Shown here piece by piece: positions 3,644-37,247 of a stretch of DNA of 41,724 bases; within the stretch, counting starts at the first letter, position 1; every line of letters starts with the position of its first letter. Under the pieces are notes generated by a model. That model saw nothing but the letters and a program-made list of their open reading frames with translations, was not told where the DNA came from and ran no database searches. Position numbers and translations under genes: made by a program. Source of the stretch: an uncultured Actinomycetes bacterium (lineage in GTDB: Bacteria; Chloroflexota; Dormibacteria; CF-121); NCBI GenBank assembly GCA_964601135.1, contig CAZRMD010000005.1, positions 1 through 41,724 of the forward strand. The letters run 5' to 3'.

Positions 3644-3757
3644 GGCCAGTCCGAGTTAACCAGTTCTTGACTGAAAGAGCCGGTTCCCGTAGCCCTGAGC
3701 GGGAAGCGTTGGCACGTCTCGAGATGTGTTCTCGAGCTCACTGGAAGGGAGGTAACT

Positions 3758-11617: not shown

Positions 11618-13261
11618 CTACGGCGATGGTGCCGGGCACGACGTCGGCATCGAGTCAGTTGGCTGCGCTCGCTCGCCGGTACATGGATTGAGGAAGAGCT
11701 TATTTGGCCCGCCTACGGGTCCGCTCCGGGTGAACGTCAGCATGTTCATCAGCGATCCGGCTTTATGATCGAACGAGAAGAGCCCGTTGCGTGCTCCGCT
11801 CAGCCAGTTGTCTTCGATGAAGCGCAGGATCGAGGTTTGATCCGTGACGCTGTGATCGACGAAATTGCTCTTGGCAAAGGGCGAGACGATCAGCAACGGC
11901 TGGCGCGGACCGTAGCCGCAGCGATCCTGGAGACCGCCCATGATGTTTTCAGGCTTGCTTCCGCAGTTTGTCCCAGCCAGCGCGTCAACCGTCGAGTCGT
12001 GTGACTGATTGACGATGGGACCCATCTGATGGTCGTACCAGCCATCGGAGTCGTCGTAGGCGATGACGACGGCCGTGCTGTTCCAGTATGGCGTCTGCTC
12101 GAGCCGATTAATGGTGTTAACCAGGAACACCTGCTCGTCCAGCGGATCGGAATATCCGGCGTGGCCGTCCTGGTAAGCCGGGGCCTTGAGGAAATTGACA
12201 GCCGGCATGTTGTGAGCGTCCACCGCCTGCCAGAACCACTTGAGGTCGTACTGATGGTTGGCGAGGCCGTCATGACCAACTTCGGCAACCGAGGCCGGTG
12301 ACGTATGCGCCGGGTTAGCGGTGGAAGCGTAGTACTGGAACGGTTCGTGATGGGGGATGTAGTCCTTGCTCACGATCCCCGCCATGTTGGCATGGCTCTG
12401 CGCGCAACTGGCGAAGCCACCCTGGAACCAGCCCCATGTGATGCCCTTTTCCCTGAGCATCGTGCCGATGTTTTGCTGGTTGCTGGCATCGGCGGTCGTG
12501 GTATCCCGGCTATTGCAGACATCGCCGAACGGCTGAGGATCCCCGATGACGGTTCGATTCGGGGTCACGGCATTGAATGTCGGGTCCGGGGTAAAGCCGT
12601 GGGTCTGGCCAGAAATCAGGTTCAGCGCACCCGGGGTAGACGGACCGAAGACCGTGTCGTAGGAGTTGTCGCTCATGGCGAAGTTCTGCGCATAGTTCCA
12701 CAGCGCGGTGACCGTATTCCCGTCGTAGTAGCCCATGACGAGCCCCTTGCCATGCCCGTAGTCCGTACAGGGGCGGGTCGTCGGAGGAGGCGGATTGCCG
12801 CGTCCGACCGTCTCAACGAACAGATCCATGAGCCCGTGGTCGAAGGCCCTCTGCTCGTTGGTGTAGCCATGATCCTGGTCGCAGGTCTCAAACTGCGCGC
12901 GTGTCAAGCGGAAGGGCTGCACGGAATTGGGGTTGTTCGGAGCCTGCAATGGAGTGTTGAGCCCGTTGACCGACGGTGTCTCCGCCGTCGCGCTGAAGGG
13001 CTCACCGTCGGTATTCGGGGCGACAGGATAGGTCGCGAAATAGTGGTCGAAGGAGACGTTCTCCTGGAAAATCACCACGAGGTGCTGGATCGGCGTAACA
13101 CCGCCGGTATCCTGCCCCGGTGGCGCGTTGCTGGCCCCGACGACCGACCCGGTTGACAATGCGAGAGCGGCAACGCCGAGCAAGGGCAAACGGATACGAA
13201 GACCTGTTCGCACGTCCTCCTCCTTCCAAAACGAACGGGCTGACTTCTTGGGCCAGAGCAC
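11618..13261 (-). CDS. Secreted phosphoesterase family protein (AcpA / non-hemolytic phospholipase C family)
   Basis: A signal peptide is followed by IQHLVVIFQENVSFDHYFATYP and later by the YDDSDGWYDH and DQTSILRFIEDNW segments typical of the phosphoesterase (PF04185-type) family. Confidence 0.8.
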   Translation of the reverse strand: MLWPKKSARSFWKEEDVRTGLRIRLPLLGVAALALSTGSVVGASNAPPGQDTGGVTPIQHLVVIFQENVSFDHYFATYPVAPNTDGEPFSATAETPSVNGLNTPLQAPNNPNSVQPFRLTRAQFETCDQDHGYTNEQRAFDHGLMDLFVETVGRGNPPPPTTRPCTDYGHGKGLVMGYYDGNTVTALWNYAQNFAMSDNSYDTVFGPSTPGALNLISGQTHGFTPDPTFNAVTPNRTVIGDPQPFGDVCNSRDTTTADASNQQNIGTMLREKGITWGWFQGGFASCAQSHANMAGIVSKDYIPHHEPFQYYASTANPAHTSPASVAEVGHDGLANHQYDLKWFWQAVDAHNMPAVNFLKAPAYQDGHAGYSDPLDEQVFLVNTINRLEQTPYWNSTAVVIAYDDSDGWYDHQMGPIVNQSHDSTVDALAGTNCGSKPENIMGGLQDRCGYGPRQPLLIVSPFAKSNFVDHSVTDQTSILRFIEDNWLSGARNGLFSFDHKAGSLMNMLTFTRSGPVGGPNKLFLNPCTGERAQPTDSMPTSCPAPSP

Positions 13262-13379
13262 GGGGTGGTCCGGCCTCCCGCTCCCTTATACGCGATTACG
13301 TGGAAGAAATGAAGAAGATCTGGTTAAGGGATGACCGGGACGGGCTGCTATCAGGAAGTCTCCGCCGGGATGCCGCGAA

Positions 13380-14441
13380 TTAGTACCAGGCCGGGGCAGA
13401 GGTCGCAGTGAGATCGACGCCCTGGGTTACCTGGACCGGCGTCGGTTGCGGCGTCGGGAAGACGACGGCGGCGGGCGAGGCCCCAGCGGCCACGGCTGAG
13501 GGCGCAGTGGGAAGCGCCAGGTACCACAACTGGAAATGGCCGGTGGCACCCACGGGCGCAAAGTAGGCGAGGGCTTGCCCATCGGGCTCCCAGGTGGGCT
13601 CCGCATAAAGGCCACCGTCGAGCAGGATGCGCGCCGGGCCCAAAGAACTGCCATCGAAGGGCGCAAGCTCCAGGCGCGTGGTTTGGTTGCCCGCCCGGCA
13701 GATCATCGCCAGCTGGGTGCCGTCTGGTGAAAGCGAGGGTTGGCTGCAGTCGTCGGCCGGGTTGGTGAGCGGCTTGCCAATGGCCCCCGGGCGGCTCTGC
13801 AGGAAGATCGTCGAGTGGACCACCGTCGACGGGTCGATCGAGTGAGAAACATAGAGGATGCCGGTGGACGAGATCGGCACAGGATTCGTATCGCCACCAG
13901 TGTTGTGGTTGCCCTGCGTCCGCAGCCTCGCCTGCCACTGGCCGCCGTTCAACGGCATGCTCCAGACGGAGAAGTCAACGGTGTAACCGAACTTCGGGCT
14001 GTCGTAGCTGTAGACGACCGTCGAGCCATCGGGGGTCACCCGCGGGTAGAAGGCCCAGTGGTTGCCGTCGATGATCCGTGAACCATCATTGGTCAGCCGC
14101 TTGATCATGTTGCCGTTGACGTCGAGGAGATACAGGTCGCTGGCGAAGACGTTGTGGTTGACGGCCACGAGCTTTGTGTGATCAGCCGTCAACGCCGGCT
14201 GTGACCAGTCGCCCGCGGGTCCGATCTCGCTGAAGCCCCCGTCTTTCAGTTTGAAGAGGCGCCCCGCCTGAACCACGAACATCGTCCCCGGCAGGACGAA
14301 CCTCGGCTTGGTCGAGGTCGGCAGCTGTGCCTGCTCTTTGACCACCTTGCTCTTCAGCGTCCCCAGGTACAGGTAAACACCCGAGCCAAATGCCAGCATC
14401 AGCGGCACAAACAAAATGGCGGCCAAGCGGCGAAGGATCAC
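13380..14441 (-). CDS. Membrane-anchored TolB-like beta-propeller (WD40-like repeat) protein
   Basis: An N-terminal TM segment is followed by repeated S-PDG-type propeller blades (TPDGSTVVYS, SPDGTQLAMI, EPDGQALAYF). The start is placed at the GTG at 14441, which forms a GTGA overlap with the LCP gene stop. Confidence 0.65.
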   Translation of the reverse strand: MILRRLAAILFVPLMLAFGSGVYLYLGTLKSKVVKEQAQLPTSTKPRFVLPGTMFVVQAGRLFKLKDGGFSEIGPAGDWSQPALTADHTKLVAVNHNVFASDLYLLDVNGNMIKRLTNDGSRIIDGNHWAFYPRVTPDGSTVVYSYDSPKFGYTVDFSVWSMPLNGGQWQARLRTQGNHNTGGDTNPVPISSTGILYVSHSIDPSTVVHSTIFLQSRPGAIGKPLTNPADDCSQPSLSPDGTQLAMICRAGNQTTRLELAPFDGSSLGPARILLDGGLYAEPTWEPDGQALAYFAPVGATGHFQLWYLALPTAPSAVAAGASPAAVVFPTPQPTPVQVTQGVDLTATSAPAWY

Positions 14442-22574: not shown

Positions 22575-22603
22575 TTGACAAATATACGAGGTCGTGTAAG
22601 AAT
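22575..22603 (+). promoter_or_regulatory. Sigma-70-like promoter for the XRE regulator, probably producing a leaderless mRNA
   Basis: TTGACA (22575-22580), a 17-nt spacer, then AAGAAT (22598-22603). The ATG at 22610 lies 7 nt after the -10 element and has no SD sequence. Confidence 0.4.
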
Positions 22604-22609
22604 GCCAAA

Positions 22610-22879
22610 ATGAATGTCGAGGTTCGGGCGACCGGGCTGCGTGCCATGCGCGAGAAGAAAGGGCTCACGCAGCGCGAGCTGGCACACCACCTGGGCATCA
22701 GCCAGAACTATATTCCGGCACTCGAGTCGGGAGCGAGGCGACCTGGACCAAAGCTGCGGCAGGCGTTGATGAAATTCTTCAACGTCAATTTCGAAGAACT
22801 CTTCGAGGTGGTCATGGTGAACCCGGAGAGCGCCAGCGAGCAGGTCCTCGAGCCACGCGACGAGCGTCGCGCCGGCTGA
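22610..22879 (+). CDS. XRE-family helix-turn-helix transcriptional regulator
   Basis: The 89-aa ORF has a Cro/C1-type HTH (LRAMREKKGLTQRELAHHLGISQNYIPALESGARRP). Confidence 0.8.
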   Translation: MNVEVRATGLRAMREKKGLTQRELAHHLGISQNYIPALESGARRPGPKLRQALMKFFNVNFEELFEVVMVNPESASEQVLEPRDERRAG

Positions 22880-23169: not shown

Positions 23170-24522
23170 ATGCGCGGAGTTCGGATTCCTCAAGATCTCA
23201 ACGGCGAAGACCAGTTCGTTCTTGGCCTTTCGGTTCCCCGTCTCGCGGCTGTCTTACTCGGACTGCTAGCCGCGTACACCATCCTTCATCTCTCGCTTCC
23301 CGCCCCACTGCAGATCGGTGCGGCGTCATTTGCCGCGCTCGCCGGCGCCATCGTCGCCTGGGTGCGTCCGGAAGGACGTTCGCTGATCCATTGGGCCGTG
23401 GCCGCGATCGAGTTCAAACTGGGCGAGCGCCCAGCTCGAGTTGGGCGCGACGTCCACGAGCCGTCAAGCCCTGTATCAGCCGTTCCCCAGCGTCGGGTGA
23501 TCTCCAAGCCGGTAGCAGCCTCACCAAGTCTTCGGGTTCTGAGGGCTGCTTCGGACTCGCCGCAACCTCGTAGCCCAGAGATTTCGGCGGATCCCGAGGT
23601 GCTTGAAATCAGCGGCGAGCCTGACGTTGGACTGGCCGACCCGGAGGTTGCGGATGAGGCCGGTCGCCTGCTACCGGCTCCGGTGTACCTTGGCGGCCCG
23701 CAGTTGATCGCGTTCTTTTCCACGAAGGGCGGAACGGGCCGGACAACCCTGGCTACGGAGATCGCCTCATTGCTGGCAATGAAGGGTCGCTATCGCGAGT
23801 CACCGTCGAGCGGACCTCAGCGGCTCCGCGTCGCCTTGATCGATTTCGACCTGGCTTCGGCCAACGTTTCCGCTCGGTTCGGGCTCGCCCAGCCAACGAT
23901 GCTCGATTACCTGTCTGACGCCAGCGTGCCGCACCCCGATCCACGGGACTTTCTGATCCGTCATCCGGCAACCAGCGTCGATGTGCTGCTGGGCCCCTCA
24001 AAGTGCCTTGCCGGCGACCGCTCGGACCTCATGGGTGTCGCCCAAGCTGCGCACATCCTGAGCGCCTTGAAGGCAGCGGGGTATCAGTACCTGGTTCTCG
24101 ACCTCGCTGCGGCTCTGGGAGATCTCGAGACGTACCTGCTGGAAGCGGCCACCCGGATCTATTGCGTGGTGACGCCCACGGCCGGCTCGATTCAGTCGCT
24201 CTATCGGGGGGTTGAGGCTCTTCGACGGCTCGGCCTCGGGGCAAAGCTGCACTACGTCGCCAACAAGATGCGCGACGGCATCAGCCTCGCCGAACCCATG
24301 GGTGACCTCAACGGGTCGCTCGTCGCTCGCATTCCCTATGACCCTGCCTTTGAAGCCGCAGAGAATCGGCATCAACCGCTTGCCACCTATGGAAATGGGC
24401 CAACCCTTGACGCGCTGATGCAACTGGCCGCCGCGATCTACCCCGCATTGCAGGTTCCTCCGGCCGGCCGGTCCGCAGTGTCGCCATTCGCCTGGTTCGC
24501 AAGACGACGCCGTGCTGGCTGA
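23170..24522 (+). CDS. Fusion protein: N-terminal PrgI-family (VirB3-like) membrane domain, Pro/Ser/Glu-rich linker, C-terminal TadZ/CpaE-like MinD/ParA-type ATPase
   Basis: The N-terminus (RIPQDLNGEDQFVLGLSVPRLAAVLLGLLAAYTIL) plus a second hydrophobic segment matches the PrgI-family pattern. The linker contains DPEV repeats. The C-domain has the deviant Walker A FSTKGGTGRTT and a MinD/CpaE-like body (LIDFDL, YLVLDL, IPYDP). Confidence 0.75.
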   Translation: MRGVRIPQDLNGEDQFVLGLSVPRLAAVLLGLLAAYTILHLSLPAPLQIGAASFAALAGAIVAWVRPEGRSLIHWAVAAIEFKLGERPARVGRDVHEPSSPVSAVPQRRVISKPVAASPSLRVLRAASDSPQPRSPEISADPEVLEISGEPDVGLADPEVADEAGRLLPAPVYLGGPQLIAFFSTKGGTGRTTLATEIASLLAMKGRYRESPSSGPQRLRVALIDFDLASANVSARFGLAQPTMLDYLSDASVPHPDPRDFLIRHPATSVDVLLGPSKCLAGDRSDLMGVAQAAHILSALKAAGYQYLVLDLAAALGDLETYLLEAATRIYCVVTPTAGSIQSLYRGVEALRRLGLGAKLHYVANKMRDGISLAEPMGDLNGSLVARIPYDPAFEAAENRHQPLATYGNGPTLDALMQLAAAIYPALQVPPAGRSAVSPFAWFARRRRAG

Positions 24523-25822
24523 CGTATCTGCCCGCCCCGTGCCGCCGACACCCGAGGAGCTGCGACAATTCGTGCGCTCGCAGCTCACCCTGCAGGTGGA
24601 CCCGGAAATCATCAACCCGTTCTCCACCAATCCGAATCGTCAACAGATCCTCAGGGACCGGATTCGCCACGCCGTCATACAACGGCAACTGCTGCCGACC
24701 GCCGAGCTGGTCGACACGCTCTTCGATGAGATCGTCGGCCTGGGCCCGCTTGAGCCGCTCATGGCCGATCCCGACATCACAGACATCCTGGTGAATCGGT
24801 TCGACGAAATCTATGTCGAGCGGCGAGGCCGGCTCGAGTTCGTACCTTGCGCATTTCGCGACGACGCCCAGCTCGAGCAGGTGATTCACAAGATCGTGGC
24901 GCTCGTTGGCCGCGAGATCAACATCGACAAGCCGCTAGTCGACGCCAGGATGGTGGATGGGAGCCGCGCCAATGCGGTCTACGCGCCCGTTGGGGGACCG
25001 ACCTTGTGCATTCGAAAGTTCAGTCGGGTGCGGCTGGCGCTGGTCCCGGATGAGCGACGCCCAGATCTCCCCAGCTGGGTCAGCACGGGTGGCCTGTCGT
25101 CACAGATGGGCGCATTCCTCGAAGCCATGGGGGTGGCCCGGGCGAACATCTTGATCGCTGGCGCCACCGGAAGCGGCAAGAGTACCTTGCTTCGTTCCAT
25201 CGTCAGCGCCTTTCCCGAGGACGAGCGCGTGATCACGATCGAGGACACCGCCGAACTAGAGCTGGAGAACCCGCATTGGGTCAAGCTCGAGTGCGTGCAT
25301 TCCAGGGAACTGGCCGGCAAGACCACCCAGGAGCGGCGACTCGATGTTGCCGACCTGGTCCAGAACGCGCTCCGGATGCGACCGGACCGTTTGATCATCG
25401 GAGAGATCCGCCACAGCAAAGAGGCCTACTACGTGCTCGAAGCCCTGAACACCGGGCACGATGGCTCGGCGACCACCATCCATGCCAGCAGTTGCGATGA
25501 CGCCCTGGCACGGCTGGAGTTGTTGGTGAGTCGGGACTTTGGGCAATTGAGTGCGGGAGAAATCCGCCGTTATGTCGCCCGCGTCTTCGACCTTGTCGTC
25601 TTCGTCAGCCGGTTGCGGAATGGCCGCCGTTATGTCCTTGAAATTGCCGAGCTGCGCGGCATCGACCCCGATGGACAGTACCTGCTGATGCCAGTCTTCG
25701 TGGGGGATATCACCAACGGGCATCACGGGATCAGCGTTGATTTCAGAAGTCTTCCGGATTATCGACCCGGTACCCGCCTGAATCGGAAGCTCGAGCTGCA
25801 AGGGATGCGATGGCTTTCCTAG
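24512..25822 (+). CDS. tadA: TadA/CpaF-family secretion ATPase (T2SSE/VirB11 superfamily)
   Basis: Motifs: GLGPLEPLMADPDITDILVN, Walker A GATGSGKST, Walker B RPDRLIIGEIR, His box LNTGHDGSATTIHA. It overlaps the upstream gene by 11 nt. Confidence 0.9.
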   Translation: MLADVSARPVPPTPEELRQFVRSQLTLQVDPEIINPFSTNPNRQQILRDRIRHAVIQRQLLPTAELVDTLFDEIVGLGPLEPLMADPDITDILVNRFDEIYVERRGRLEFVPCAFRDDAQLEQVIHKIVALVGREINIDKPLVDARMVDGSRANAVYAPVGGPTLCIRKFSRVRLALVPDERRPDLPSWVSTGGLSSQMGAFLEAMGVARANILIAGATGSGKSTLLRSIVSAFPEDERVITIEDTAELELENPHWVKLECVHSRELAGKTTQERRLDVADLVQNALRMRPDRLIIGEIRHSKEAYYVLEALNTGHDGSATTIHASSCDDALARLELLVSRDFGQLSAGEIRRYVARVFDLVVFVSRLRNGRRYVLEIAELRGIDPDGQYLLMPVFVGDITNGHHGISVDFRSLPDYRPGTRLNRKLELQGMRWLS

Positions 25823-26664
25823 CCGCGGCCTGCGTGGCGATGGCGATCCTCACTCTGGGCCTGGCAATTCCGGCTGGCCACCAGCGTGACCAGCGACGAT
25901 GGATCGATTCGCTCCTGGACCGCAGCCGGGAGCGGCTGGTACAGGCGCGCATCGCCGGAGACCCGCGCACCTATCTCGCCCTGCAATTGCTGGCCCCGGT
26001 CGGGTTATTTGCGATCGGCTGGCTCCAATCGCCGGTTCTCGCGGTGGCCGGCGCTGTCGCTGGACTTTTGACTCCGCGCATGTACGTGGCCTGGTTGATA
26101 CGTACCCAGTCTCGGCGAAGCGAGGCGGAGGCGCCGCATTTGCTCCAGGCGCTGTTAACAGGTCTCAGCGCTAGCGGAACATACCTGGACGCGCTTCGGC
26201 AGGCCAGGCTCAGCTGTTCTGATTCCTGGCTGCAGCAGGACCTCGACTCCATCATCCAGCGATTCCTGCTCGACACACCGCTCCACGAGAGCCTGGAGGA
26301 GGTTCTTGGCCGGACGACGACCCGAAATCTCCGACTCATCTGGGAAACGCTGCGGATCTGCACCGAGAACCATTTGCCGACGGAGAAAGCCCGAAGCCTT
26401 TTCATGGAACTGTCCTCGACCGTGCAGTTCAATCTGCAGCTCGCCAACGAAGTGCGCGCTCGCTCCACGGGCCAGCGAGCCCAGATCTGGCTGCTGGCCA
26501 TCATCGTTCCGGCCATGTATCTCTACCTGCGATTGATGAGCCCGCAGCTGCTGACTGTCCTCGATGACACCATCGTGGGCCGCGTTGTTTTGTTTCCGCT
26601 GGCGGTGGCATTGGAACTCGGCGGTATCGTCCTCAGCTGGCGGATTGCTCGGTTCGAAGCATGA
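25810..26664 (+). CDS. tadB: TadB-like pilus platform protein (T2SSF domain)
   Basis: The 284-aa ORF has an N-terminal TM segment, a central soluble T2SSF-like helical domain and C-terminal TM segments. It overlaps tadA by 13 nt. Confidence 0.8.
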   Translation: MAFLAAACVAMAILTLGLAIPAGHQRDQRRWIDSLLDRSRERLVQARIAGDPRTYLALQLLAPVGLFAIGWLQSPVLAVAGAVAGLLTPRMYVAWLIRTQSRRSEAEAPHLLQALLTGLSASGTYLDALRQARLSCSDSWLQQDLDSIIQRFLLDTPLHESLEEVLGRTTTRNLRLIWETLRICTENHLPTEKARSLFMELSSTVQFNLQLANEVRARSTGQRAQIWLLAIIVPAMYLYLRLMSPQLLTVLDDTIVGRVVLFPLAVALELGGIVLSWRIARFEA

Positions 26665-27563
26665 TGGTGGGAGCGCTCTGCGCCGGGCTCGCCTGCTTTC
26701 TCGGCCTTCAGGCCGTTTTGATGGGTCCGCCGAAACGCTCGCTTGCCAGTCGAGAGTTGATTCGGGCGAGCACCCTTTCCCCGGTGGAATGGCGACTGCA
26801 TCAACAGGCCCGCCTGGATTGGTATCAACGCTGGCTGCGCCCGACGGTGTTGCTCTCGGCCGCTCGACTCCATCTTCGACCCAGCCGGATGGACCCGCTG
26901 TACTTCATTCAGGCGGGAATCAATCCGGAGCACGTCGATGGCACGGAGCTGCGCGTCATTCGATTGATGGCTGGGATTGCCGGCGCCGCAGCCGGCGGTC
27001 TCCTCGCTCTGTTCGTGTCGGGCGGTCTCGCCATCATTCCGTTGCTGGCATGGGTCGGCTACATTGCGCCGGCGCGCGCCATCGCGGCCCGGCGGCGGCA
27101 GCGCCAGTCGGCCCTTCAGCGTGAGCTGGCGCAACTGATCAGCATGCTCCGCGCCTTCATCACGGCCGGGATGCCACTCGAGCGGACGCTGCACATCCTG
27201 TCCGCAAGCTCGCGGCCCGACAGCATCCTCAAGCAGGAGATCCGGCACGCCTTGGGGCGGTACGGGCTTGGATTGAGCATCGAGCAGGCTCTGCAGGAAA
27301 TTGGACCCCGCACCGGCGTCGACGACCTCAGCGGATTTGTTGCCGCAGTCAGCCAGGCCAAGCGCGCGGGGAGCAGCCTGGAGGCAACGCTGCGCGATCA
27401 GGAGTTGATGGTTCGAATGAATCAGCGCAACCGGGCCACAGCGCAGGCCGCGGCGGTAAGCACCAAACTGCTCGCGGTGGTGGGCGGAGTCTACCTGCCG
27501 GAATTCGTGATCTTGATCATCGTTCCACTGTTCTGGGGAATCATGCGGCGGGCGTTTGGATGA
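26661..27563 (+). CDS. tadC: TadC-like pilus platform protein (T2SSF domain)
   Basis: The 300-aa ORF has a T2SSF-like segment (LAQLISMLRAFITAGMPLERTLHIL...LEATLRDQ) and flanking TM segments. An ATGA overlap joins it to tadB. Confidence 0.8.
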   Translation: MMVGALCAGLACFLGLQAVLMGPPKRSLASRELIRASTLSPVEWRLHQQARLDWYQRWLRPTVLLSAARLHLRPSRMDPLYFIQAGINPEHVDGTELRVIRLMAGIAGAAAGGLLALFVSGGLAIIPLLAWVGYIAPARAIAARRRQRQSALQRELAQLISMLRAFITAGMPLERTLHILSASSRPDSILKQEIRHALGRYGLGLSIEQALQEIGPRTGVDDLSGFVAAVSQAKRAGSSLEATLRDQELMVRMNQRNRATAQAAAVSTKLLAVVGGVYLPEFVILIIVPLFWGIMRRAFG

Positions 27564-27611: not shown

Positions 27612-27764
27612 ATGAACACGTTGAAACGCGGACAGTCGACACTCGAATGGGTCATTGGTGCGGCGATCATTCTCGGCACGCTCGTGGTCGGCGTCATGGC
27701 TTGGAACCAGGGACTCGTGGCAAAGATGGGTCAGATGGTCCAGCGCCTGACGCAGACCCAATGA
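27612..27764 (+). CDS. flp: Flp-like / actinobacterial-type (DUF4244-like) prepilin, 50 aa, not in the ORF track
   Basis: The ATG at 27612 is preceded by a GGGAGGAAG RBS. Sequence: MNTLKRGQSTLEWVIGAAIILGTLVVGVMAWNQGLVAKMGQMVQRLTQTQ. It has a short basic leader, a G/QSTLEW class III processing motif with Glu at +5, then a hydrophobic helix. Its position after tadC matches actinobacterial tad loci. Confidence 0.75.
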   Translation: MNTLKRGQSTLEWVIGAAIILGTLVVGVMAWNQGLVAKMGQMVQRLTQTQ

Positions 27765-27792: not shown

Positions 27793-28185
27793 ATGAGGCG
27801 ACGACGCCAGCAAGGCCAGGAAACGCTGCAGGCGATCCTGGTCGTCGCGTTCATGCTCCTGCCGGTCCTTTTCGGCATCATCGAGCTCGGCAGCGTGATC
27901 CAGGCGTGGATCGGCCAGCAATCTGCCACGGCGCTGGGGGCACGGGTCGCCGGTGAGCGCGGTGAGGACGACGCGACGGTCCGAGACCGTATTGCCGCTG
28001 AGCTACGGGCTGCCGGCCTTGACCCTGCGAAGGTTCAGGTACGCGTGATGCCCGCCTACGTGCCGTGGGGCCAGCCCATCACGGTTCGCCTGGTGAGCCA
28101 ACGCCGGGTGGCTATACCGTTCTTGTTCAGTCGCGACGTGACGCTGACGTCGACCTATGTGGGACGCGGAGAGATAAATCATTGA
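27793..28185 (+). CDS. tadE: TadE-like pseudopilin / pilus assembly protein
   Basis: The 130-aa ORF has the N-terminal TadE signature RRQQGQETLQAILVVAFMLLPVLFGIIELG. Confidence 0.75.
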   Translation: MRRRRQQGQETLQAILVVAFMLLPVLFGIIELGSVIQAWIGQQSATALGARVAGERGEDDATVRDRIAAELRAAGLDPAKVQVRVMPAYVPWGQPITVRLVSQRRVAIPFLFSRDVTLTSTYVGRGEINH

Positions 28186-28691
28186 CCGGGTCCGCGCGCT
28201 TGCGTTATCACCTGGTGCCCTGTAGGCGCCGCGGCCAGAGCGTCCTCTACGCGGTTCTCCTGATGCCCACGCTATTTCTCGTACTCGCCCTCGCCATCGA
28301 TATGGCGGGTCTGCAGCTCGACAAACTGCGAGTTCGATACGCGCTCGACATGGCAACCATCACCGGGGCGACGGCCGTCGACCGCAACACCTATATCCAA
28401 ACCGGTCGGCTGCGGCTCGATCCGAACGCTGCGACATCGGTGACCCGGGAATACCTGCTGCGAAACCTGAAAGCGCTGCCGGACACGCCGACGCCAGAAG
28501 AGGTCGCGGCGGGGGCCGACATCACGGTTGTCAACCGGGTTCCCGCCCACGATCCGTACACCGGCCTGGTACTGGACCGCCCGGCAATCTGTGCTCGCAT
28601 CAAGCTGCGCCACCGTTTTGACCTGCTTGGGTGGGTTGGTATGAACGCCATCAACTTCTCGGTCACATCGACAGCGGAGATCCGTACCTGA
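28182..28691 (+). CDS. TadG/TadF-like (Tad N-terminal domain) pseudopilin-like protein
   Basis: RRRGQSVLYAVLLMPTLFLVLALAIDMAGLQ resembles the TadE/G-like N-terminal domain. The start is uncertain: TTG 28182 (TTGA overlap with the tadE stop), TTG 28200 or GTG 28215. The ATG at 28065 in the track is an out-of-context extension. Confidence 0.65.
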   Translation: MTGSARLRYHLVPCRRRGQSVLYAVLLMPTLFLVLALAIDMAGLQLDKLRVRYALDMATITGATAVDRNTYIQTGRLRLDPNAATSVTREYLLRNLKALPDTPTPEEVAAGADITVVNRVPAHDPYTGLVLDRPAICARIKLRHRFDLLGWVGMNAINFSVTSTAEIRT

Positions 28692-29962
28692 CCAGGCTGC
28701 GAATCATCAAACGCTCGCTCGCCGGAGTCCTCGGTCTCAGCTTCCTGGCCGCCTCATCAGCCAGCGGCCAGACCGCAGCAGGGCCGAGTGTCAGCGTCAG
28801 CATCACCGCCGTATCCGGCGAGGCCGGGCATGCATTCGTGTATGCGCAGGTAAGCGATTTTTTGGCCACATTTCCCGCTCCTACCGGCACCACCCACCTG
28901 TCACCGTATTACTCGGAGTGGATTGAAGAACCCTTCGCGACCCCGTCCTGTCCGTGGATCTGGGCGGTATACGTGTTCAATCGCTGGACGAATGAACAGG
29001 TGAACACTCCTCCGCCAGGTGCGCCGCTGCCTACGTTCGGGACGACGACGCGAGTATGCGCCAGCCCGACAAGCACCCCGGTCGATCAGCCGCCGGTTGC
29101 AAATGCTTCCGCAGAGCTTGACCTGGATCTGCAGGTCAGCATGTCACCGCCGGTTGCGATCGCCGGGTCGACGACCCTGGTGTCGGCCAGTCTCAGTAGT
29201 GCACTGACCCAGGATCTAAACCTGTATCTGAGCATGGGCATCGCGGACTGGTCGGTGAGCGGCTGGTCGGTCGAGTTCGGTGACGGCCAGGCCGCGCGCC
29301 TCCATGGCGGCAGCGCAACGGCGATCCAGGTTCCCCACGTGTACCGCTCGGCCGGGACCTACGACACCCGAGTCGTCGCCTCGATATCTGGTCATGCGCA
29401 GGCGGCGGTCTACGATCGCTTCGGAAGCGTCCAGCTCATCCGCCGGCCGTTCAATGTCGACGTCGCCAATCATGCCCTGGCGACGACCCGTTCGCAGCCG
29501 GCACGGAGATACGTGCCGCCCGAGGCGACCGTGACCGTTTCGCCCAGCCTGGGCTTCGCAGCGGGGGACGCCAGTGCACCCGGTTTCCGCCAAATTGACG
29601 CGCTGCGCGGTTCGCTGACGACGCTAGCCGTCCACCTGCTCCTCATACGCGAAGGCCAACTGACCGTCGATGGCCGGTCGCGCGGCTACGGCCGCTCGCG
29701 CCTCACGGGCTGGCGTCTCGACGGCTCGCCTTCGGACGCCCCGCCAGGAAGTGGGACGATTCCCGGACCCATCCATGCCGCCGGTGATCTCCTGCGGCTG
29801 CAATGGAATGCGCCCGACCACGTCATCGGCGGGCAGCCGACCGACTACATCGTGCCCATGACGCTCTACATCGAGACGCGTTTTCCAGATGGCCATGTTG
29901 GGTCGTATGCCATGTCATCGAGCTTTTCAGTATCGGTTGGTTTTTCTGCACAGAGTGGCTAG
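28631..29962 (+). CDS. Secreted protein of unknown function with a PKD-like domain
   Basis: A Sec-type signal is present (RSLAGVLGLSFLAASSASG). A central segment (VEFGDGQAARLHGGSATAIQVPHVYRSAGTYDTRVVA) matches the PKD-domain consensus pattern. The start is uncertain; ATG 28631 overlaps the upstream gene by 61 nt. Confidence 0.6.
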   Translation: MGWYERHQLLGHIDSGDPYLTRLRIIKRSLAGVLGLSFLAASSASGQTAAGPSVSVSITAVSGEAGHAFVYAQVSDFLATFPAPTGTTHLSPYYSEWIEEPFATPSCPWIWAVYVFNRWTNEQVNTPPPGAPLPTFGTTTRVCASPTSTPVDQPPVANASAELDLDLQVSMSPPVAIAGSTTLVSASLSSALTQDLNLYLSMGIADWSVSGWSVEFGDGQAARLHGGSATAIQVPHVYRSAGTYDTRVVASISGHAQAAVYDRFGSVQLIRRPFNVDVANHALATTRSQPARRYVPPEATVTVSPSLGFAAGDASAPGFRQIDALRGSLTTLAVHLLLIREGQLTVDGRSRGYGRSRLTGWRLDGSPSDAPPGSGTIPGPIHAAGDLLRLQWNAPDHVIGGQPTDYIVPMTLYIETRFPDGHVGSYAMSSSFSVSVGFSAQSG

Positions 29963-29970
29963 GAGGGGAT

Positions 29971-30627
29971 ATGAAGCGGAGCATCTATTTGTCGGTGTGC
30001 GTTGTGCTTGCGGCCGCCGCCGGATTTTTCTACTACAGCCAAACCCGCCAGTCGACGGCGGTCGTTGCGACCCGCGATCTCAGTGTTGGCGTCCGCATTC
30101 AGGACGCCGACGTAACCACGCGATCGGTGAATCCACTGTCGCTCGACGGCCAGATGCTTCGAACACCCGATCAGGCCATCGGCCAGGTGGTCGCCTTTCC
30201 GATTCTGCAAGGACAGTTCATCGGTGCACGGCAGGTTGCGCCATCAAAGAACGCCGCGATGCTGACCGCAGGATTGCAGGTGCCGGCAGGCTACCGCGTC
30301 ATCGGCGTACCCATTGCACCGGCCACCGCGGTGGGCGGCGTGCTCAAGCCCGGTGATCTGGTCGATGTCATGGCAATCCCTAATCCATCGAAGGCCACGG
30401 GGATCATCGATGAAGCCACGCCCACGCCGACCACGATCGGCAAGAATGTGCTGGTGCTCGGGCTTCGGACTGATCAGGGGGCGCAGGTCGACCAGTCCGA
30501 CCATGGACTGACCGTCGGCAATAGCAAGCCGGAGAGCGTCCTGCTGGCAATCCCGGAGGCCGAGGAAACAACCTACTCGCACGCCATTGCCAGCTCGACC
30601 TTCGTCCTGGCTCTGAGCACCGACTGA
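29971..30627 (+). CDS. cpaB: CpaB/RcpC-family Flp pilus assembly protein (SAF plus RcpC-like domains)
   Basis: The ATG at 29971 is preceded by an AGGAGGGG RBS. An N-terminal TM segment is followed by a SAF-like segment (VVATRDLSVGVRIQDADV) and YRVIGVPIAPATAVGGVLKPGDLVDVM, typical of CpaB. Confidence 0.75.
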   Translation: MKRSIYLSVCVVLAAAAGFFYYSQTRQSTAVVATRDLSVGVRIQDADVTTRSVNPLSLDGQMLRTPDQAIGQVVAFPILQGQFIGARQVAPSKNAAMLTAGLQVPAGYRVIGVPIAPATAVGGVLKPGDLVDVMAIPNPSKATGIIDEATPTPTTIGKNVLVLGLRTDQGAQVDQSDHGLTVGNSKPESVLLAIPEAEETTYSHAIASSTFVLALSTD

Positions 30628-30637
30628 GCGGTCGTCG

Positions 30638-32860
30638 ATGGTCAGACTGTTTCACCGGGCGGGCTTTGGCGGCGAGGTATCGGCCGTCCGCGACGGTCTC
30701 CTGATGCTCAGGAGCGGCTCACCCCGGGCGCTGATCGCGACCTCCTCCTTGAATTTCGAAGGTCTCGCCCCCGAGCACCAGCTGCGCGCCGTGCAAGCTT
30801 TTCGAGACCTCTTGCACGCTCAGGCCGGCCCGTTACAGCTGTATCTTCGAGTCCGGCGGCTTCCGGCAGGTGACGCCCAGGAGCCCGAGGCTGACCGCTT
30901 CGCTTACCGGCGCGATTATCTCGCGGCCTCGACGCGCAGCTTCATCAATGCCCATCTGCAGGACACCCCGGTCTACCAGCGAGAGGTCCTCATCGTTCTG
31001 GCGCCAATCGAGTCCGGGCGTCAGCTGCTCCGTTCGTGGCGCTTTCGCTTTGACCGCTCGAATGAGGCAGCCTATGTCGCGACCGACCTCGGACAGCCGC
31101 TCAAGGCTCGCGCCCACTCCTTGATCGACCAGTTGCGCCGGATCGGGCTCAAGGGTGAGCTGCTCGACGACCGCGCGCTGACCCTCCTGGTCGAGGATCT
31201 CTACGGCAAGGGGTGGCCAATCGAGTCGGGTGCGCGCCAGGACTTTGCCAATCGAGCCGACAGCCTGGAAATCCAGGGTCGCCGATACGTCTCGTTCGTG
31301 GTTGACCGCTATCCCGGCGAAGAGATCGAACCCGGCTGGCTCCTGCCGCTGCTGAGCTTTAAGGGCGAGCTCCATGTCGGCATTCACATTCAGCCGCTGG
31401 AGACGGATCGGATGCTGGCCATTCTTCATCACCGCATCCGTGACCTCCGGGCCGACGACATGGCGAATCAGGAGTCAGGTGCACTGCGACGAGGCGCGGT
31501 GGGTACCCTTCCAGATGCGCTCACCATGCATCAGGCGCTCGCGCGCAACGAGGAGAAGGCCTTCGCCGTCAGCTTTTATCTGACGGTCGGCGCCGACGAT
31601 CCAGTCCAGCTCCGCAGCCAGGTTGACGCGCTGCGCACAAGCTGCCGGCGAATGATGCTGCATACCGTGCAGCCGTACTTCGAGATGCGGCAGGGCCTCC
31701 TGTCCTGCTGGCCACTGGGAACCGATCTCCTCGCTCGGCAGAGCATCCTCCACACGAGTGCCGTCGCGACGATGTTTCCCTGGTTGCAGGAAGACCTGGC
31801 CGATCCGGAGGGGCACTACTGGGGCTACAACAAAGACACCGGCGGCCTGTGCGTCTTCGATCCCTTCGACGAAAGCCGTTTTACCAATGCCAACATCGCG
31901 GTGCTGGCGCATTCGGGAGCGGGCAAGAGCTATGCGGCGGCCTCCGTGGTGCTCAGCGGCTATACGCGCGGGCTCGGTGCGATCGTTCTGGATCCGGAGG
32001 CCGAGTATGGGGGCATGATCCGCAACCTGGGCGGCACGTACTTTCACCTGGCGGCCGGTTCGGGCCACGCCATCAACGTCCTCGACCCATTGCTCTTTGC
32101 CCTCGATTCGGAAGAGCCGACGGATCAGTTGGCCGACGTGTTGGATCTGATCGCCTTGATGTGCGGCCGGCTCGACGAGTTCGAACGGGCACAGATCGAG
32201 ACGGTCATCCGTTCGGTCCTCGCCAGCGGCGACACGACCCCCGTGCTCCGGGACGTCTGGCGGCGTCTGGACGCGACCCACCCCGGATCACGCCCCAGCA
32301 CCATTCTTCGACGCTGGGTAACGGGGGATCTGGGAGGACTGTTCAGCGCACCAACCAATGTCGATCTGAGTACGGCGATCGTTGGTTTCAACCTGCGCGA
32401 CCTGAGCGATGAACTGATCCCTCCGGCGTATCTCATCCTGGCCAACTGGTTATGGGCATCGCTAAGACGGCAACGGAGACCTCGGCATCTTCTGATCGAC
32501 GAGGCCGGGCTCCTGCTTGAACACGAACCCATCCGCCGATTCCTGATCAGGCTGGCGCGTCGCATCCGAAAGTATGGCGGGAGTTTGATCCTGGTCAGCC
32601 AGAACCCCGGAGACTTCTTCGAAACCAAGGACGGTGCGGTCCTGGCGACCAACCCCAGCATCCTGCTCCTCGGGTCGCAGAAGCACTCAGAGGCTGTCAA
32701 GCTGCAGAAGGCCTTCAACCTGACGGAACGGCAGCTGAACTATCTCGAAACGGCTGAGCGCGGTGACTTCCTCCTGGTTGCCGGACCCAATCGGGTGCCG
32801 GTCCACATCATGGCCCCTCCCTGGATGGATGAAATGATCGTGACTTCCCGCGGACATTGA
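30638..32860 (+). CDS. VirB4/PrgJ/TrsE-like type IV secretion ATPase (DUF87/TraC-VirB4 family)
   Basis: The 740-aa ORF has an N-terminal domain typical of Gram-positive VirB4 homologues (LIATSSLNFEGLAPEHQLRAVQAFRDLLHAQAGPLQLYLRVRRL). Motifs: Walker A HSGAGKSY, ILDPEAEYGGMIRNLGGTYFHL, INVLDP, Walker B LLIDEAGLLL, and RKYGGSLILVSQNPGDF. Confidence 0.8.
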   Translation: MVRLFHRAGFGGEVSAVRDGLLMLRSGSPRALIATSSLNFEGLAPEHQLRAVQAFRDLLHAQAGPLQLYLRVRRLPAGDAQEPEADRFAYRRDYLAASTRSFINAHLQDTPVYQREVLIVLAPIESGRQLLRSWRFRFDRSNEAAYVATDLGQPLKARAHSLIDQLRRIGLKGELLDDRALTLLVEDLYGKGWPIESGARQDFANRADSLEIQGRRYVSFVVDRYPGEEIEPGWLLPLLSFKGELHVGIHIQPLETDRMLAILHHRIRDLRADDMANQESGALRRGAVGTLPDALTMHQALARNEEKAFAVSFYLTVGADDPVQLRSQVDALRTSCRRMMLHTVQPYFEMRQGLLSCWPLGTDLLARQSILHTSAVATMFPWLQEDLADPEGHYWGYNKDTGGLCVFDPFDESRFTNANIAVLAHSGAGKSYAAASVVLSGYTRGLGAIVLDPEAEYGGMIRNLGGTYFHLAAGSGHAINVLDPLLFALDSEEPTDQLADVLDLIALMCGRLDEFERAQIETVIRSVLASGDTTPVLRDVWRRLDATHPGSRPSTILRRWVTGDLGGLFSAPTNVDLSTAIVGFNLRDLSDELIPPAYLILANWLWASLRRQRRPRHLLIDEAGLLLEHEPIRRFLIRLARRIRKYGGSLILVSQNPGDFFETKDGAVLATNPSILLLGSQKHSEAVKLQKAFNLTERQLNYLETAERGDFLLVAGPNRVPVHIMAPPWMDEMIVTSRGH

Positions 32861-32987: not shown

Positions 32988-33194
32988 GTGCAGGACCTCA
33001 CTGATCGTCGCAATGAGGAGGCCCGCGAGGTCCGGGATTTGCTGGCTGCCAAGCTCAAGATGCACCCCATCTGGCTGGGCGGGCTCGAGACCCAGGCAGC
33101 GCGACATATCTATCTGTTCATCCAGGCGCTGGAAGGGCGCAAGCCATTCGGGCGGGTGCGGCGGCAGCGGGCGCCCAACCTGACGCTAGACTGA
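32988..33194 (+). CDS. Hypothetical small protein (68 aa)
   Basis: The GTG start is preceded by a purine-rich GGAAAGGGGAAAAG tract. There is a strong G/C bias at third codon positions. I recognise no family. Confidence 0.4.
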   Translation: MQDLTDRRNEEAREVRDLLAAKLKMHPIWLGGLETQAARHIYLFIQALEGRKPFGRVRRQRAPNLTLD

Positions 33195-35321: not shown

Positions 35322-35918
35322 ATGCGCCGTGTCCTGTTCTACCGCCTGTACGATGTCGCCCCTGCTCGGCTTTCCGAGTTGGAGAAAGAGGGCCGGGCAT
35401 TCTCCCGCGGCCGCGCCTGGCGCGGAGATGCGTTCTGGCTGGCAACCGAGAATTCAACCGACCTGTTCGCCATGGAGTACTTCCGCCACGCTCGTGACGA
35501 AGAAGGGCCATCACTGTCGGCGGCGGGATTCCTTCGCATGCTCGGTGATGAAACCGATGCCATCGCCACCCTCTATTTCCTCAACGACGCGGCGCAGCGC
35601 TTCCACGCGCGGGCGACGCTCCGCGACGACGAGAATCCGATCGCCAAGCTTCGCAACCTGGAGATCCGGCAGGGTCGACTGCCGTCCGGGTTGCCCATCG
35701 AGGACGTGCTGGCGGCGCGGCCGGTGATCAAGAAGATGGAGGGCGAGCCGATCACCTTCTATCCGCCCACCTACCGCCCCAACGCCTATTTCCGGCGTGA
35801 CAAGCCTGGAATGTGGGGATTCAGCCTCAAAGGGATCCGCGACTTCGCCCCCTCGTTCCTGGAAGCCGAGGCGGAAGCGATGCGCATCTATCGAGGATTC
35901 CGCCAGCTCAACCCGTGA
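35322..35918 (+). CDS. Hypothetical protein (198 aa), no family recognised
   Basis: This is a long ORF with coding-like codon bias. Its stop overlaps the GTG start of the downstream hydrolase (GTGA). Confidence 0.55.
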   Translation: MRRVLFYRLYDVAPARLSELEKEGRAFSRGRAWRGDAFWLATENSTDLFAMEYFRHARDEEGPSLSAAGFLRMLGDETDAIATLYFLNDAAQRFHARATLRDDENPIAKLRNLEIRQGRLPSGLPIEDVLAARPVIKKMEGEPITFYPPTYRPNAYFRRDKPGMWGFSLKGIRDFAPSFLEAEAEAMRIYRGFRQLNP

Positions 35919-36781
35919 ACGAATCGACGGCCACGCTCGAAAGCACCGACGGCCTCGATCTCTTTGTCCGCCGCTGGCACACCGACGGCGTGGCACATCA
36001 ATGGACCATCGTCATCGTCCACGGCATCGGCGACCATGGTGGCCGCTTCCGGCATTTCGCGGAATGGTTCACCCCCTTGGGCGGCACGGTCTACGCCGTT
36101 GACTATCGCGGGCATGGCCGCAGTGGCGGACAGCGCGGGCACACTCCGAGCCTGAACGCCCTGCTGGACGACGTCGACATCGTCGTGCAGCGTGCGCGTA
36201 CCGAGACTGGCGGGCCCATCGTTCTGGTCGGGCACTCGCTGGGCGGTTTGCTCGCGATCGCGTACGCGCTTCAGCGACCCGAGCGTGTCGACAAAGCCGT
36301 CTTCAGTGCCCCCATGCTGATTCTCAAACTGAAGGTTCCGACATGGAAGCAGCCGCTGGCCAGGGTGCTGCCCAAAGTGGCGCCGAAGCTCAGCCTGGCG
36401 AACGAAGTGGACCCCGCGCTCCTCAGCCACGATCCGGCGATCGCCGTCGCGTACCGCAGCGATCCGCTGGTGCATGACCGGATTACCGGGAGTTTCTACG
36501 CCAGCACCGTCGCCCGCGGCGAAGAGTTCCTCGCCAGAGCACCGGAGCTTCGGGTGCCATTCCTGTTGCTGCATGGTCGCGATGACCAGATCGTGGATCC
36601 GGTCGGGAGCCAGCGGTTCTTCGCCCGGGCAACGGCGCCGGGCCGGGCCTTCTGCCTCTATCCCGGCATGTATCACGAGATCTTCAATGAGGTCGAGCAC
36701 GAGAAAGTCTTTGCCGACGTCGAGAGCTGGCTGACCAATCGCACGGACGCGCATCTGACCGGCTGGAACCCGCCACCCTGA
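35915..36781 (+). CDS. Alpha/beta hydrolase, monoacylglycerol lipase / lysophospholipase-like
   Basis: The start is at the GTG at 35915. IVIVHGIGDHGGRF, YRGHGRSGG, the nucleophile elbow GHSLGG and the C-terminal HGRDDQIVD...YHEIFNE are typical of this family. Confidence 0.8.
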   Translation: MNESTATLESTDGLDLFVRRWHTDGVAHQWTIVIVHGIGDHGGRFRHFAEWFTPLGGTVYAVDYRGHGRSGGQRGHTPSLNALLDDVDIVVQRARTETGGPIVLVGHSLGGLLAIAYALQRPERVDKAVFSAPMLILKLKVPTWKQPLARVLPKVAPKLSLANEVDPALLSHDPAIAVAYRSDPLVHDRITGSFYASTVARGEEFLARAPELRVPFLLLHGRDDQIVDPVGSQRFFARATAPGRAFCLYPGMYHEIFNEVEHEKVFADVESWLTNRTDAHLTGWNPPP

Positions 36782-36788
36782 GCCGCTG

Positions 36789-37247
36789 ATGCGCGCAGTG
36801 CTGCAGCGCGTCAGCGAGGCGTCGGTTCGGTGGGAGGGTGGTGAAGCCGCGATCGGGCCCGGCTACTGCATTCTCTTGGGCGTCGCGGACACCGACCATG
36901 AACGTGACGCCGACTCCCTCGCGGACAAGATCCTCAAGCTTCGGGTCTTCAGCGATGACGCCGGCAAATTCAACCTGAGCGCCACGCAGGTCAACGCCGA
37001 CCTGCTGGTCGTGTCACAATTCACGCTCTTCGCCGACGCCCGGGGCCAGAACCGACCGAGCTTCCTGCGCGCGGCCCGGCCCGAGGTCGGACGGCCGTTG
37101 CTCGACCGCTTCATCGAGCGGCTGCGGCTCAGCGGGTTGCTGGTCAAGACCGGTTCGTTCGGGGCGACGATGGCGGTCCGGCTGGTCAACGACGGACCGG
37201 TCACCATCGTCCTCAGCACCGACCCCTGGGAGCCACGGATCGGCTGA
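36789..37247 (+). CDS. dtd: D-aminoacyl-tRNA deacylase
   Basis: MRAVLQRVSEASV...LLGV..DD, SQFTLFAD and NDGPVTIVL are hallmark Dtd segments. Confidence 0.9.
   Translation: MRAVLQRVSEASVRWEGGEAAIGPGYCILLGVADTDHERDADSLADKILKLRVFSDDAGKFNLSATQVNADLLVVSQFTLFADARGQNRPSFLRAARPEVGRPLLDRFIERLRLSGLLVKTGSFGATMAVRLVNDGPVTIVLSTDPWEPRIG

Follow-up and report, generated by a model that had tools for sequence, protein, structure and literature searches.

The stretch of DNA analyzed here (hereafter the window) comprises 41,724 nucleotides of contig CAZRMD010000005.1 from an uncultured soil member of the Dormibacteria (assembly GCA_964601135.1), and it encodes a VirB4-family ATPase of 740 amino acids (aa; 30638..32860, + strand, ATG start) whose gene closes a complete tad operon of monoderm type. 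Type IV secretion has VirB4 as its hallmark ATPase; Tad pili are members of a separate superfamily, the type IV filaments. The same operon also encodes the canonical membrane partner of VirB4, VirB3 (PrgI), attached to another protein in a PrgI-TadZ fusion of 450 aa (23170..24522, +). We read the locus as a VirB3/VirB4 (PrgI/VirB4) cassette that has been domesticated and fixed in the chromosome, lacks a relaxase and holds a tad operon within it, with a fusion that would tether VirB4 to the Tad machine; we favor this interpretation tentatively and with somewhat less than even confidence. Two of its parts can be graded separately: the tad operon was probably inserted into an older VirB3/VirB4 cassette, and the fusion, judged by analogy with other systems, probably acts as the tether.

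Assignment of the ATPase to the VirB4 family is far beyond chance, and sequence models and fold comparison mark it as a genuine VirB4 of monoderm (Gram-positive-like) kind, as the original prediction had proposed from the N-terminal domain pattern and the motif order. The open reading frame (ORF) combines an N-terminal VirB4 domain with a C-terminal RecA-like ATPase domain, and all of the motifs quoted in that prediction are present: Walker A SGAGKS (aa 426-431), DPEAEY (452-457), LGG (464-466), INVLDP (479-484), Walker B LLIDEAG (618-624) and RKYGGSLILVSQNPGDF (644-660). Walker A and B and the RK...Q motif C are all carried by the RecA-like domain, and most motif residues are at least 90% conserved in an alignment of 129 family sequences. 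Pfam matches were to P-loop_TraG, DUF87 and AAA_10. The top NCBIfam model was the VirB4-like CD1110 family (2.4e-70, aa 202-722), followed by the Mycoplasma VirB4, TraC-F and VirB4_CagE models, while CedD (1.1e-5) and HerA models matched at 1e-5 or worse. All of the NCBIfam VirB4 scores fell below their curated cut-offs (NF045971, 237.7 bits vs 325; TIGR00929, 94.6 vs 643), which indicates a divergent clade that is a member of no curated equivalog. The best match among PDB sequences was 4AG5, the C-terminal domain of Thermoanaerobacter VirB4 (1.8e-35). Some relatives are already labeled "VirB4 family type IV secretion system protein" by NCBI, and the VirB4 identity of the protein is, as such, not new.

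An AlphaFold model of VirB4 built on 129 diverse homologues (predicted local distance difference test, pLDDT, 87.2; predicted template modeling score, pTM, 0.84) had as its top Foldseek match the full-length TrwK/VirB4 of R388 (E 2.5e-30, template modeling (TM) scores 0.70/0.66, ~795 columns), with 4AG5 second (target TM 0.82, root-mean-square deviation 2.9 Å) and the R388 structures 8RTB and 7O41 also among the matches. Matches to DndH-C (1e-12), HerA (1e-11) and the coupling protein TrwB (1e-7) were far weaker, and non-secretion ATPases of the ASCE class were not the best matches, in keeping with the original assignment. The full-length TrwK match, together with the CD1110 alignment over aa 202-722, shows the VirB4-specific N-terminal domain ahead of the ATPase domain. 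A model from a shallow alignment (20 sequences, all >70% identity) reached a pLDDT of 59 and was replaced by the 129-sequence model; its structure matches were exclusively VirB4 structures.

The original prediction had called this VirB4 an orphan, a description that does not hold, as PrgI (VirB3) is encoded in the operon's fusion protein. The Pfam PrgI model (PF12666) scores 30.1 bits on the fusion against a gathering score of 27, and 30.3 and 27.7 bits on its counterparts in related loci L001 and L010; the stand-alone PrgI copies of tad-less relatives score 22.8-26.7 bits, slightly under the cut-off. Residues 5-87 correspond to a PrgI/VirB3-like hairpin of two transmembrane (TM) helices, and the N-terminus also matches the start of the actinobacterial SCO6880 family in NCBIfam; the NCBIfam model for a KGGVGR-motif ATPase matches the fusion protein as well. 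A linker of ~85 aa, rich in Pro, Ser, Ala and Glu, leads from the hairpin to a C-terminal ParA/MinD-type ATPase with the Walker A motif KGGTGRTT, which occupies the TadZ/CpaE position of the operon and is matched in Pfam by generic models alone (CbiA, AAA_31). The N-terminal domain of this TadZ-position protein is PrgI-like, not receiver-like, and it aligns with the stand-alone PrgI genes of tad-less relatives and with annotated plasmid PrgI proteins. The PrgI-like domain had been proposed as a stand-in for a missing partner; it is better described as the normal partner re-wired, homologous to the stand-alone PrgI whose gene overlaps virB4 in relatives. One unbroken ORF spans PrgI and TadZ in 18 of 18 loci, among them the window and L010, where protein identity is 39%. 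A PrgI profile searched against PDB sequences recovered no VirB3 or PrgI structure. The PrgI-TadZ protein had zero matches in 72,556 plasmids (tblastn, E 1e-4), and so the fusion is not a plasmid-borne design among those plasmids. We found no description of a PrgI-TadZ fusion, of VirB4 within a tad operon, or of Dormibacterota secretion or pili in a literature search that was not exhaustive.

Close homologues of VirB4 (71-96% identity) are numerous in soil metagenomes, under the labels Chloroflexota, Dehalococcoidia and Candidatus Dormibacterota. When 1.84 billion representatives were searched, the close family was reduced to a single cluster, with the next relatives at 46%, 39% and 35-37% identity. 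A crude neighbor-joining tree without support values placed a clade of ~35 clusters (50% identity) apart from other VirB4s, including plasmid ones; its named members are Candidatus Dormibacteria/Dormibacterota, save for Chloroflexota-type labels and one metagenome-assembled genome labeled Candidatus Solibacter. The best-scoring named VirB4s outside the clade belong to Patescibacteria (Colwellbacteria, Parcubacteria and "Patescibacteria group"), aligned over aa 15-736 at 27-30% identity. The closest plasmid VirB4, from Embleya (31.6% identity by tblastn), lies outside the top 70 (at least 200 bits) of the ranking that includes the Patescibacteria.

We surveyed the neighborhoods of 95 related loci with hidden Markov models (HMMs) built from the window and its relatives. 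Loci were drawn from homologue-encoding contigs, a single-protein genome scan that gave 4 loci, and a metagenome scan that sampled two subfamilies only; two more subfamily-c loci beyond the 95 were read from gene tables. In type A, the tad-embedded arrangement (32 loci, from subfamilies at 52-100% and at 46% VirB4 identity), CpaB lies directly upstream of VirB4. PrgI, TadZ, TadA, TadB, TadC and Flp were all present in the 17 of 17 type A loci with at least 7.6 kb of upstream sequence, and orf196, a conserved gene described below, was found downstream of virB4 in 19 of 19. Type B (47 loci, 36-44% identity) is a minimal prgI-virB4-orf196 cassette without tad genes, in which PrgI (108-123 aa) has a stand-alone gene directly upstream of virB4, with a 4-nt overlap between the two, and orf196 immediately follows virB4 in 38 of 40 loci. 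Type C, a single subfamily of 3 loci, has a lone VirB4 followed by an alpha/beta hydrolase, with no PrgI or orf196 nearby. The question raised originally, whether homologues always stand beside tad genes, has two answers: yes at 52% identity and above (17/17 testable loci) and no at 36-44% identity (0/47).

All three types share a chromosomal neighborhood of folB and/or orf196, a Hydrolase_4 gene and dtd, which points to vertical inheritance and not to repeated acquisition. The order, with folB upstream and with orf196, the hydrolase gene and dtd downstream, is retained in the tad-less loci and where VirB4 identity is as low as 46%. The original prediction had also considered that close homologues might lie in complete conjugative modules, with this copy a recent insertion. 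The data speak against it: synteny at the locus extends to relatives with a VirB4 of 46% identity, and close homologues do not lie in such modules. There is, then, a Dormibacterota-specific clade of chromosomal, relaxase-less VirB4s with PrgI as the usual immediate neighbor, and in two sister subfamilies a tad operon sits exactly between prgI and virB4, with prgI in frame with tadZ. The topology of the tree tentatively favors an ancestral prgI-virB4-orf196 into which tad was inserted.

One distant locus of Dormibacterota type (L016) is a more complete minimal type IV secretion system (T4SS) at the same chromosomal site. Around prgI-virB4-orf196-dtd it has extra genes (at 2951-4586, 9144-10004 and 13187-14332) for CHAP and SLT cell-wall hydrolases, a 79-aa protein with two TM helices, and a VirB6-like TrbL_4 protein (45 bits). 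Its PrgI protein is 286 aa long, with an unexplained C-terminal extension of ~200 aa. We considered that this extension might be a decayed TadZ, which would favor an ancestral tad followed by loss, and rejected the idea: the HMM score was ~0 (E 0.04 with two targets) and BLAST segments had E values of 0.36-0.8.

Ratios of nonsynonymous to synonymous substitution rates (dN/dS) for VirB4 were 0.07-0.11, measured against orthologues with saturated dS (1.1-1.9), and those for TadA were 0.09-0.12, so that purifying selection on VirB4 is equally strong. Values were 0.13-0.14 for PrgI-TadZ, against the three closer orthologues compared (L001-L003), and 0.04-0.10 for orf196. The low dN/dS of virB4 indicates that the gene is functional and no relic.

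Genes for DNA processing were sought by tblastn and with Pfam, the latter on candidate genes that length and third-position G+C had singled out across the 41.7-kb window. No relaxase, type IV coupling protein (T4CP), VirB6, VirB8 or integrase was found among the candidate genes, and tblastn against the window gave nothing with four queries from an actinobacterial plasmid (its T4CP, relaxase, VirB6-like and NlpC/P60 proteins); the absence of relaxase and T4CP partners noted originally therefore extends to the whole window. In the 95 loci neither tblastn nor HMMs, with plasmid T4CP and relaxase as queries, detected a T4CP or relaxase, with limited sensitivity for very divergent relaxases. Neither the window nor the tad-embedded loci yielded a VirB6-like channel, a VirB8-like protein or a cell-wall hydrolase; the distant locus L016 alone had a TrbL_4 gene with CHAP and SLT genes nearby.

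In Tad systems, TadZ/CpaE partners the motor and positions it. Because VirB3 anchors VirB4 in the membrane in canonical T4SSs (PMC12102498; R388 structures 8RTB and 7O41), a protein that joins a VirB3-like hairpin to a TadZ-like ATPase would probably tether VirB4 to the Tad machine. In such a machine, the membrane-embedded two-helix hairpin would bind the N-terminal domain of VirB4, as VirB3 does in canonical T4SSs, and the ParA/MinD domain would bind the TadA/TadBC assembly, as TadZ/CpaE does, so that the fusion would keep a VirB4 hexamer beside the Tad motor and platform in a two-motor machine. TadA might extend and retract the Flp pilus for contact or capture, and VirB4 might drive a macromolecule across the membrane without a relaxosome or coupling protein. 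TadA belongs to the VirB11/PilB superfamily (VirB11 model, 9.2e-59), and its pairing with VirB4 thus echoes that of VirB4 and VirB11 in classical T4SSs. As for the substrate, DNA import or exchange is our favored guess, by analogy with ComB and with Ups plus Ced, and a protein is equally open; Tad-dependent transformation reported in Micrococcus offers a third analogy for DNA (PMC4322843).

Several observations weigh against this proposal. ComEC, ComEA, DprA and a nuclease were not found in the window, where nothing points to DNA, and the locus encodes neither a VirB6-like channel protein nor a prepilin peptidase. In most of the subfamilies sampled from the clade, VirB4 is retained with no tad genes beside it, which implies that the core function of VirB4 needs no adjacent Tad system, and one subfamily keeps VirB4 without PrgI or orf196 nearby. 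The choice between insertion and repeated loss of tad depends on the unsupported neighbor-joining tree, and the VirB3-VirB4 and TadZ-TadA contacts are presumed from other systems. We consider the structural and evolutionary description well supported, and the tethered two-motor mechanism, which leans on analogy, plausible.

The cassette occurs without tad in most sampled subfamilies, and the N-terminal localization domain of canonical TadZ is replaceable; both would fit a history of mere co-location, in which prgI-virB4(-orf196) has a function unrelated to the pilus, tad landed inside by chance and the fusion just anchors TadZ in the membrane. We judge this unlikely, as the fusion (18/18) and the operon order (17/17) are kept across two subfamilies with saturated dS, and an anchor taken from VirB4's own partner, combined with virB4 at the end of the operon 10 nt past cpaB, is hard to obtain by chance.

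Similarly unlikely, in our view, is that VirB4 serves as an accessory pilus motor and not as a translocase, extracting or reinserting Flp pilins during assembly or as the missing retraction ATPase, and so re-using the established role of VirB4 in conjugative-pilus biogenesis. Its attractions are that VirB4 acts in pilus biogenesis elsewhere (PMC12102498), that Tad systems have no dedicated retraction ATPase and a bifunctional CpaF, as reported (PMC11300603, PMC12019362), and that virB4 is terminal in a pilus operon and would be tethered through PrgI-TadZ. However, at least 47 loci keep a VirB4 of this clade with neither pilin nor tad genes in the vicinity, VirB2 and Flp pilins are not related to each other, and TadA alone suffices in other Tad systems.

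The possibility that the locus is the decaying remnant of an integrated conjugative element of actinobacterial type, a T4SS module beside a tad locus, is largely refuted and very improbable. It draws on the Embleya plasmid, whose VirB4 (31.6% identity) lies in a conjugative module with a full tad locus ~10 kb downstream, and on similar Cutibacterium acnes plasmids; however, the window has a dN/dS of ~0.1, ATPase motifs at least 90% conserved in 129 sequences and conserved protein lengths, its chromosomal synteny among housekeeping genes extends across the sampled subfamilies, no integrase, repeats or compositional break were found, and the clade is separate from plasmid VirB4s. A misread non-T4SS ASCE ATPase for defense or repair, of the HerA type or the MADS mad8 type, is refuted despite a PADLOC mad8 match (2.2e-20), weak HerA matches and the Pfam DUF87 match, as the mad8 match is limited to the P-loop domain, full-length VirB4 matches ~18 orders of magnitude better than HerA, the N-terminal VirB4 domain and a PrgI partner are present, and neither further mad genes nor genes for partners of HerA (such as NurA or Sir2) accompany it; a defense-system reading of the locus was rejected accordingly.

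The nearest described system to the proposed tethered cassette is the chromosomal MPF-FATA-type T4SS of Patescibacteria, which are described as a sister lineage to Chloroflexota and Dormibacterota (PMC12102498). Like the window, it is chromosomal and lineage-wide, has PrgI/VirB3 near VirB4 and no relaxase close by, and is thought to have been co-opted for a non-conjugative role (PMC12102498). Patescibacteria loci commonly add TrsD, VirB6 and VirB2-like pilins, which the window lacks, and identity is just 27-30%. The tad operon between prgI and virB4, the PrgI-TadZ fusion and orf196 are features of the window that are not reported in the searched text of that paper (PMC12102498). The archaeal Ced and Ted systems are also domesticated T4SSs with a VirB4-like motor and no relaxase, and they work with a pilus of the type IV family (Ups); Ted loci often carry MinD/ParA ATPases, which recalls the ParA-like domain of the window (PMC9905601). 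However, Ced and Ted include components that are VirB6-like (CedA/TedA) and VirB2-like (CedA1/TedC), and a separate operon holds their pilus genes, whereas in the window a Tad-type pilus shares an operon with VirB4 and VirB3 is fused to a ParA-like protein.

Actinobacterial plasmids, namely Embleya NZ_CP108778 and linear plasmids of Cutibacterium acnes (PMC5696575), resemble the window in that a high-G+C monoderm has PrgI and VirB4 no more than ~10 kb away from a complete tad locus. On these plasmids the two are separate modules with VirB6-like, T4CP, relaxase and cell-wall hydrolase genes and an unfused PrgI, whereas the window is chromosomal and without those genes. The Embleya module (274386-297069; L007 and L009) encodes VirB6-like, PrgI, XF1762, VirB4, T4CP, replication-relaxation and NlpC/P60 proteins, with tad ~10 kb downstream, and this linear plasmid was typed as 'non-mobilizable' by MOB-suite. 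With canonical Tad/Flp (type IVc) systems the window shares a TadZ-position ATPase, TadA, TadB, TadC, a Flp-like pilin, TadE-like pseudopilins and CpaB in the usual order; it differs in the absence of a secretin, TadD and TadV, in the VirB3-like hairpin at the TadZ N-terminus, and in having VirB4 last. The ComB system of Helicobacter pylori likewise has ComB3 (VirB3) and ComB4 (VirB4) and imports DNA without a relaxase or coupling protein. ComB is unlike the window in being a diderm apparatus of VirB2, 3, 4 and 6-10 that lacks both a fusion and genes for Tad or type IV pili.

To our knowledge, T4SSs and type IV filaments are known to cooperate in loose ways only, for example in the R64 thin pilus or the Ups/Ced pair. 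If true, a VirB3 anchor-TadZ fusion with VirB4 closing the operon would be the first hard-wired link between these two machine families, with PrgI-TadZ, VirB4 and TadA as a concrete candidate complex. Beyond the tethered cassette itself, we regard as unlikely the broader proposal of a previously undescribed class of hybrid nanomachines, in which a T4SS VirB3/VirB4 motor is hard-wired via VirB3-TadZ to a Tad (type IVc) platform as a single-operon bacterial counterpart of archaeal Ups plus Ced, and which would derive from a vertically inherited Dormibacterota core cassette (VirB3/VirB4/orf196), possibly of common origin with the T4SS on Patescibacteria chromosomes. In the Dormibacterota, a phylum that is abundant in soil and uncultured, a VirB3/VirB4 cassette without relaxase is retained as a core trait of the chromosome, which extends the Patescibacteria result to free-living relatives of that lineage and bears on the domestication of conjugation machinery and on macromolecule exchange or uptake in Dormibacterota.

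The first conserved gene of the locus encodes an Xre-family helix-turn-helix (HTH) regulator (22610..22879, +; Pfam HTH_3 1.1e-13), which is 89-99% identical in L001-L004 and occupies the same place there. Upstream of it is a weak, consensus-only match to a sigma-70-like promoter (22575..22603, +; 10/12 hexamer positions) in a region where the count of such sites is at chance level. After the PrgI-TadZ gene come a TadA/CpaF-type hexameric pilus ATPase of the VirB11/PilB superfamily (24512..25822, +; Pfam T2SSE 2e-45; NCBIfam TadA family conjugal-transfer-associated ATPase 6.7e-72), a TadB-like platform protein (25810..26664, +) with a weak Pfam T2SSF match (8e-4) and position and conservation as in L001-L004 and L010, and a TadC-like platform protein (26661..27563, +; T2SSF 9.4e-13). 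A Flp-type pilin of 50 aa (27612..27764, +; MNTLKRG/QSTLEW...) has a G-XXXXE(W) processing-site-like motif and is 80-94% conserved in L001-L004 and L010; it had no match in Pfam or NCBIfam, and its assignment consequently depends on size, motif and position. Next are a TadE-like pseudopilin (27793..28185, +; Pfam TadE 3.7e-4) and a second TadE/TadG-like pseudopilin (28218..28691, +; Pfam Tad 3.9e-3, TadE 0.01), the start of which is uncertain (the ORF opens at 28065; homologues are ~157 aa).

Between the pseudopilins and cpaB lies a gene for a PKD-domain protein with a hydrophobic N-terminus (28631..29962, +; Pfam PKD 2.7e-5; start uncertain), which is conserved in all tad-embedded loci and may be a pilus-associated surface protein. 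These proteins are ~400-440 aa long and weakly match (0.0027) the model of the Patescibacteria pilus protein PamR. CpaB/RcpC (29971..30627, +; Pfam RcpC 4.1e-12 plus SAF; NCBIfam pilus_cpaB 75.9 bits, cut-off 71) has a likely start at MKRSIYL (29971) in an ORF that opens at 29803. Between the end of the cpaB stop codon (30627) and the virB4 ATG (30638) is the spacer of 10 nt reported originally, which, with the gene order and the Pfam and NCBIfam assignments, upholds the terminal position of virB4 in the tad operon. Genes of the operon overlap or are closely spaced, with no convincing internal terminator; a terminator scan of the region gave counts at chance level and was uninformative both ways. 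The locus has no secretin, TadD or prepilin peptidase (TadV) gene, and Pfam Peptidase_A24 was not found among the candidate genes of the window or in related loci.

The G+C content of the window is ~65%, with no compositional break at the locus. Flanking genes are folC-folD-folB upstream and a melibiase, an alpha/beta hydrolase and dtd downstream, and other genes of the window are of housekeeping or ordinary metabolic kinds (an aminotransferase, a cation-efflux protein, alpha/beta hydrolases, D-Tyr-tRNA deacylase and glycosyltransferases). The gene orf196 (35322..35918, +) encodes a conserved cytoplasmic protein of ~196 aa and is a candidate new VirB4 partner. In the window the melibiase gene lies between it and virB4; in L011-L013, L015 and L016 it follows virB4 directly. 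Its product had no match in Pfam, NCBIfam, PHROGs, PADLOC or PDB sequences, and has invariant GDE.D and AP..EAE.E motifs and a divergence that parallels that of VirB4.

The orf196 stop codon overlaps the start of the downstream alpha/beta hydrolase gene (GTGA), a lysophospholipase-like Hydrolase_4 (35915-36781, +) that is followed by dtd (36789-37247, +). A Hydrolase_4 gene comes after virB4 or orf196 in every arrangement with annotated downstream genes, including the lone-VirB4 loci, a placement that may reflect simple synteny or a functional link. Just past virB4 in this subfamily, orf68 (32988..33194, +) encodes a small protein of 68 aa, uncertain as a member of the system, that had no match in NCBIfam, PHROGs or PADLOC. 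It is far more conserved than its neighbors, with 94-98.5% identity between loci where VirB4 is just 72-87% identical. In one close relative (L002, 12270-16037), a protein of 1255 aa with CLIPPER repeats and a sortase domain is encoded between virB4 and orf68.

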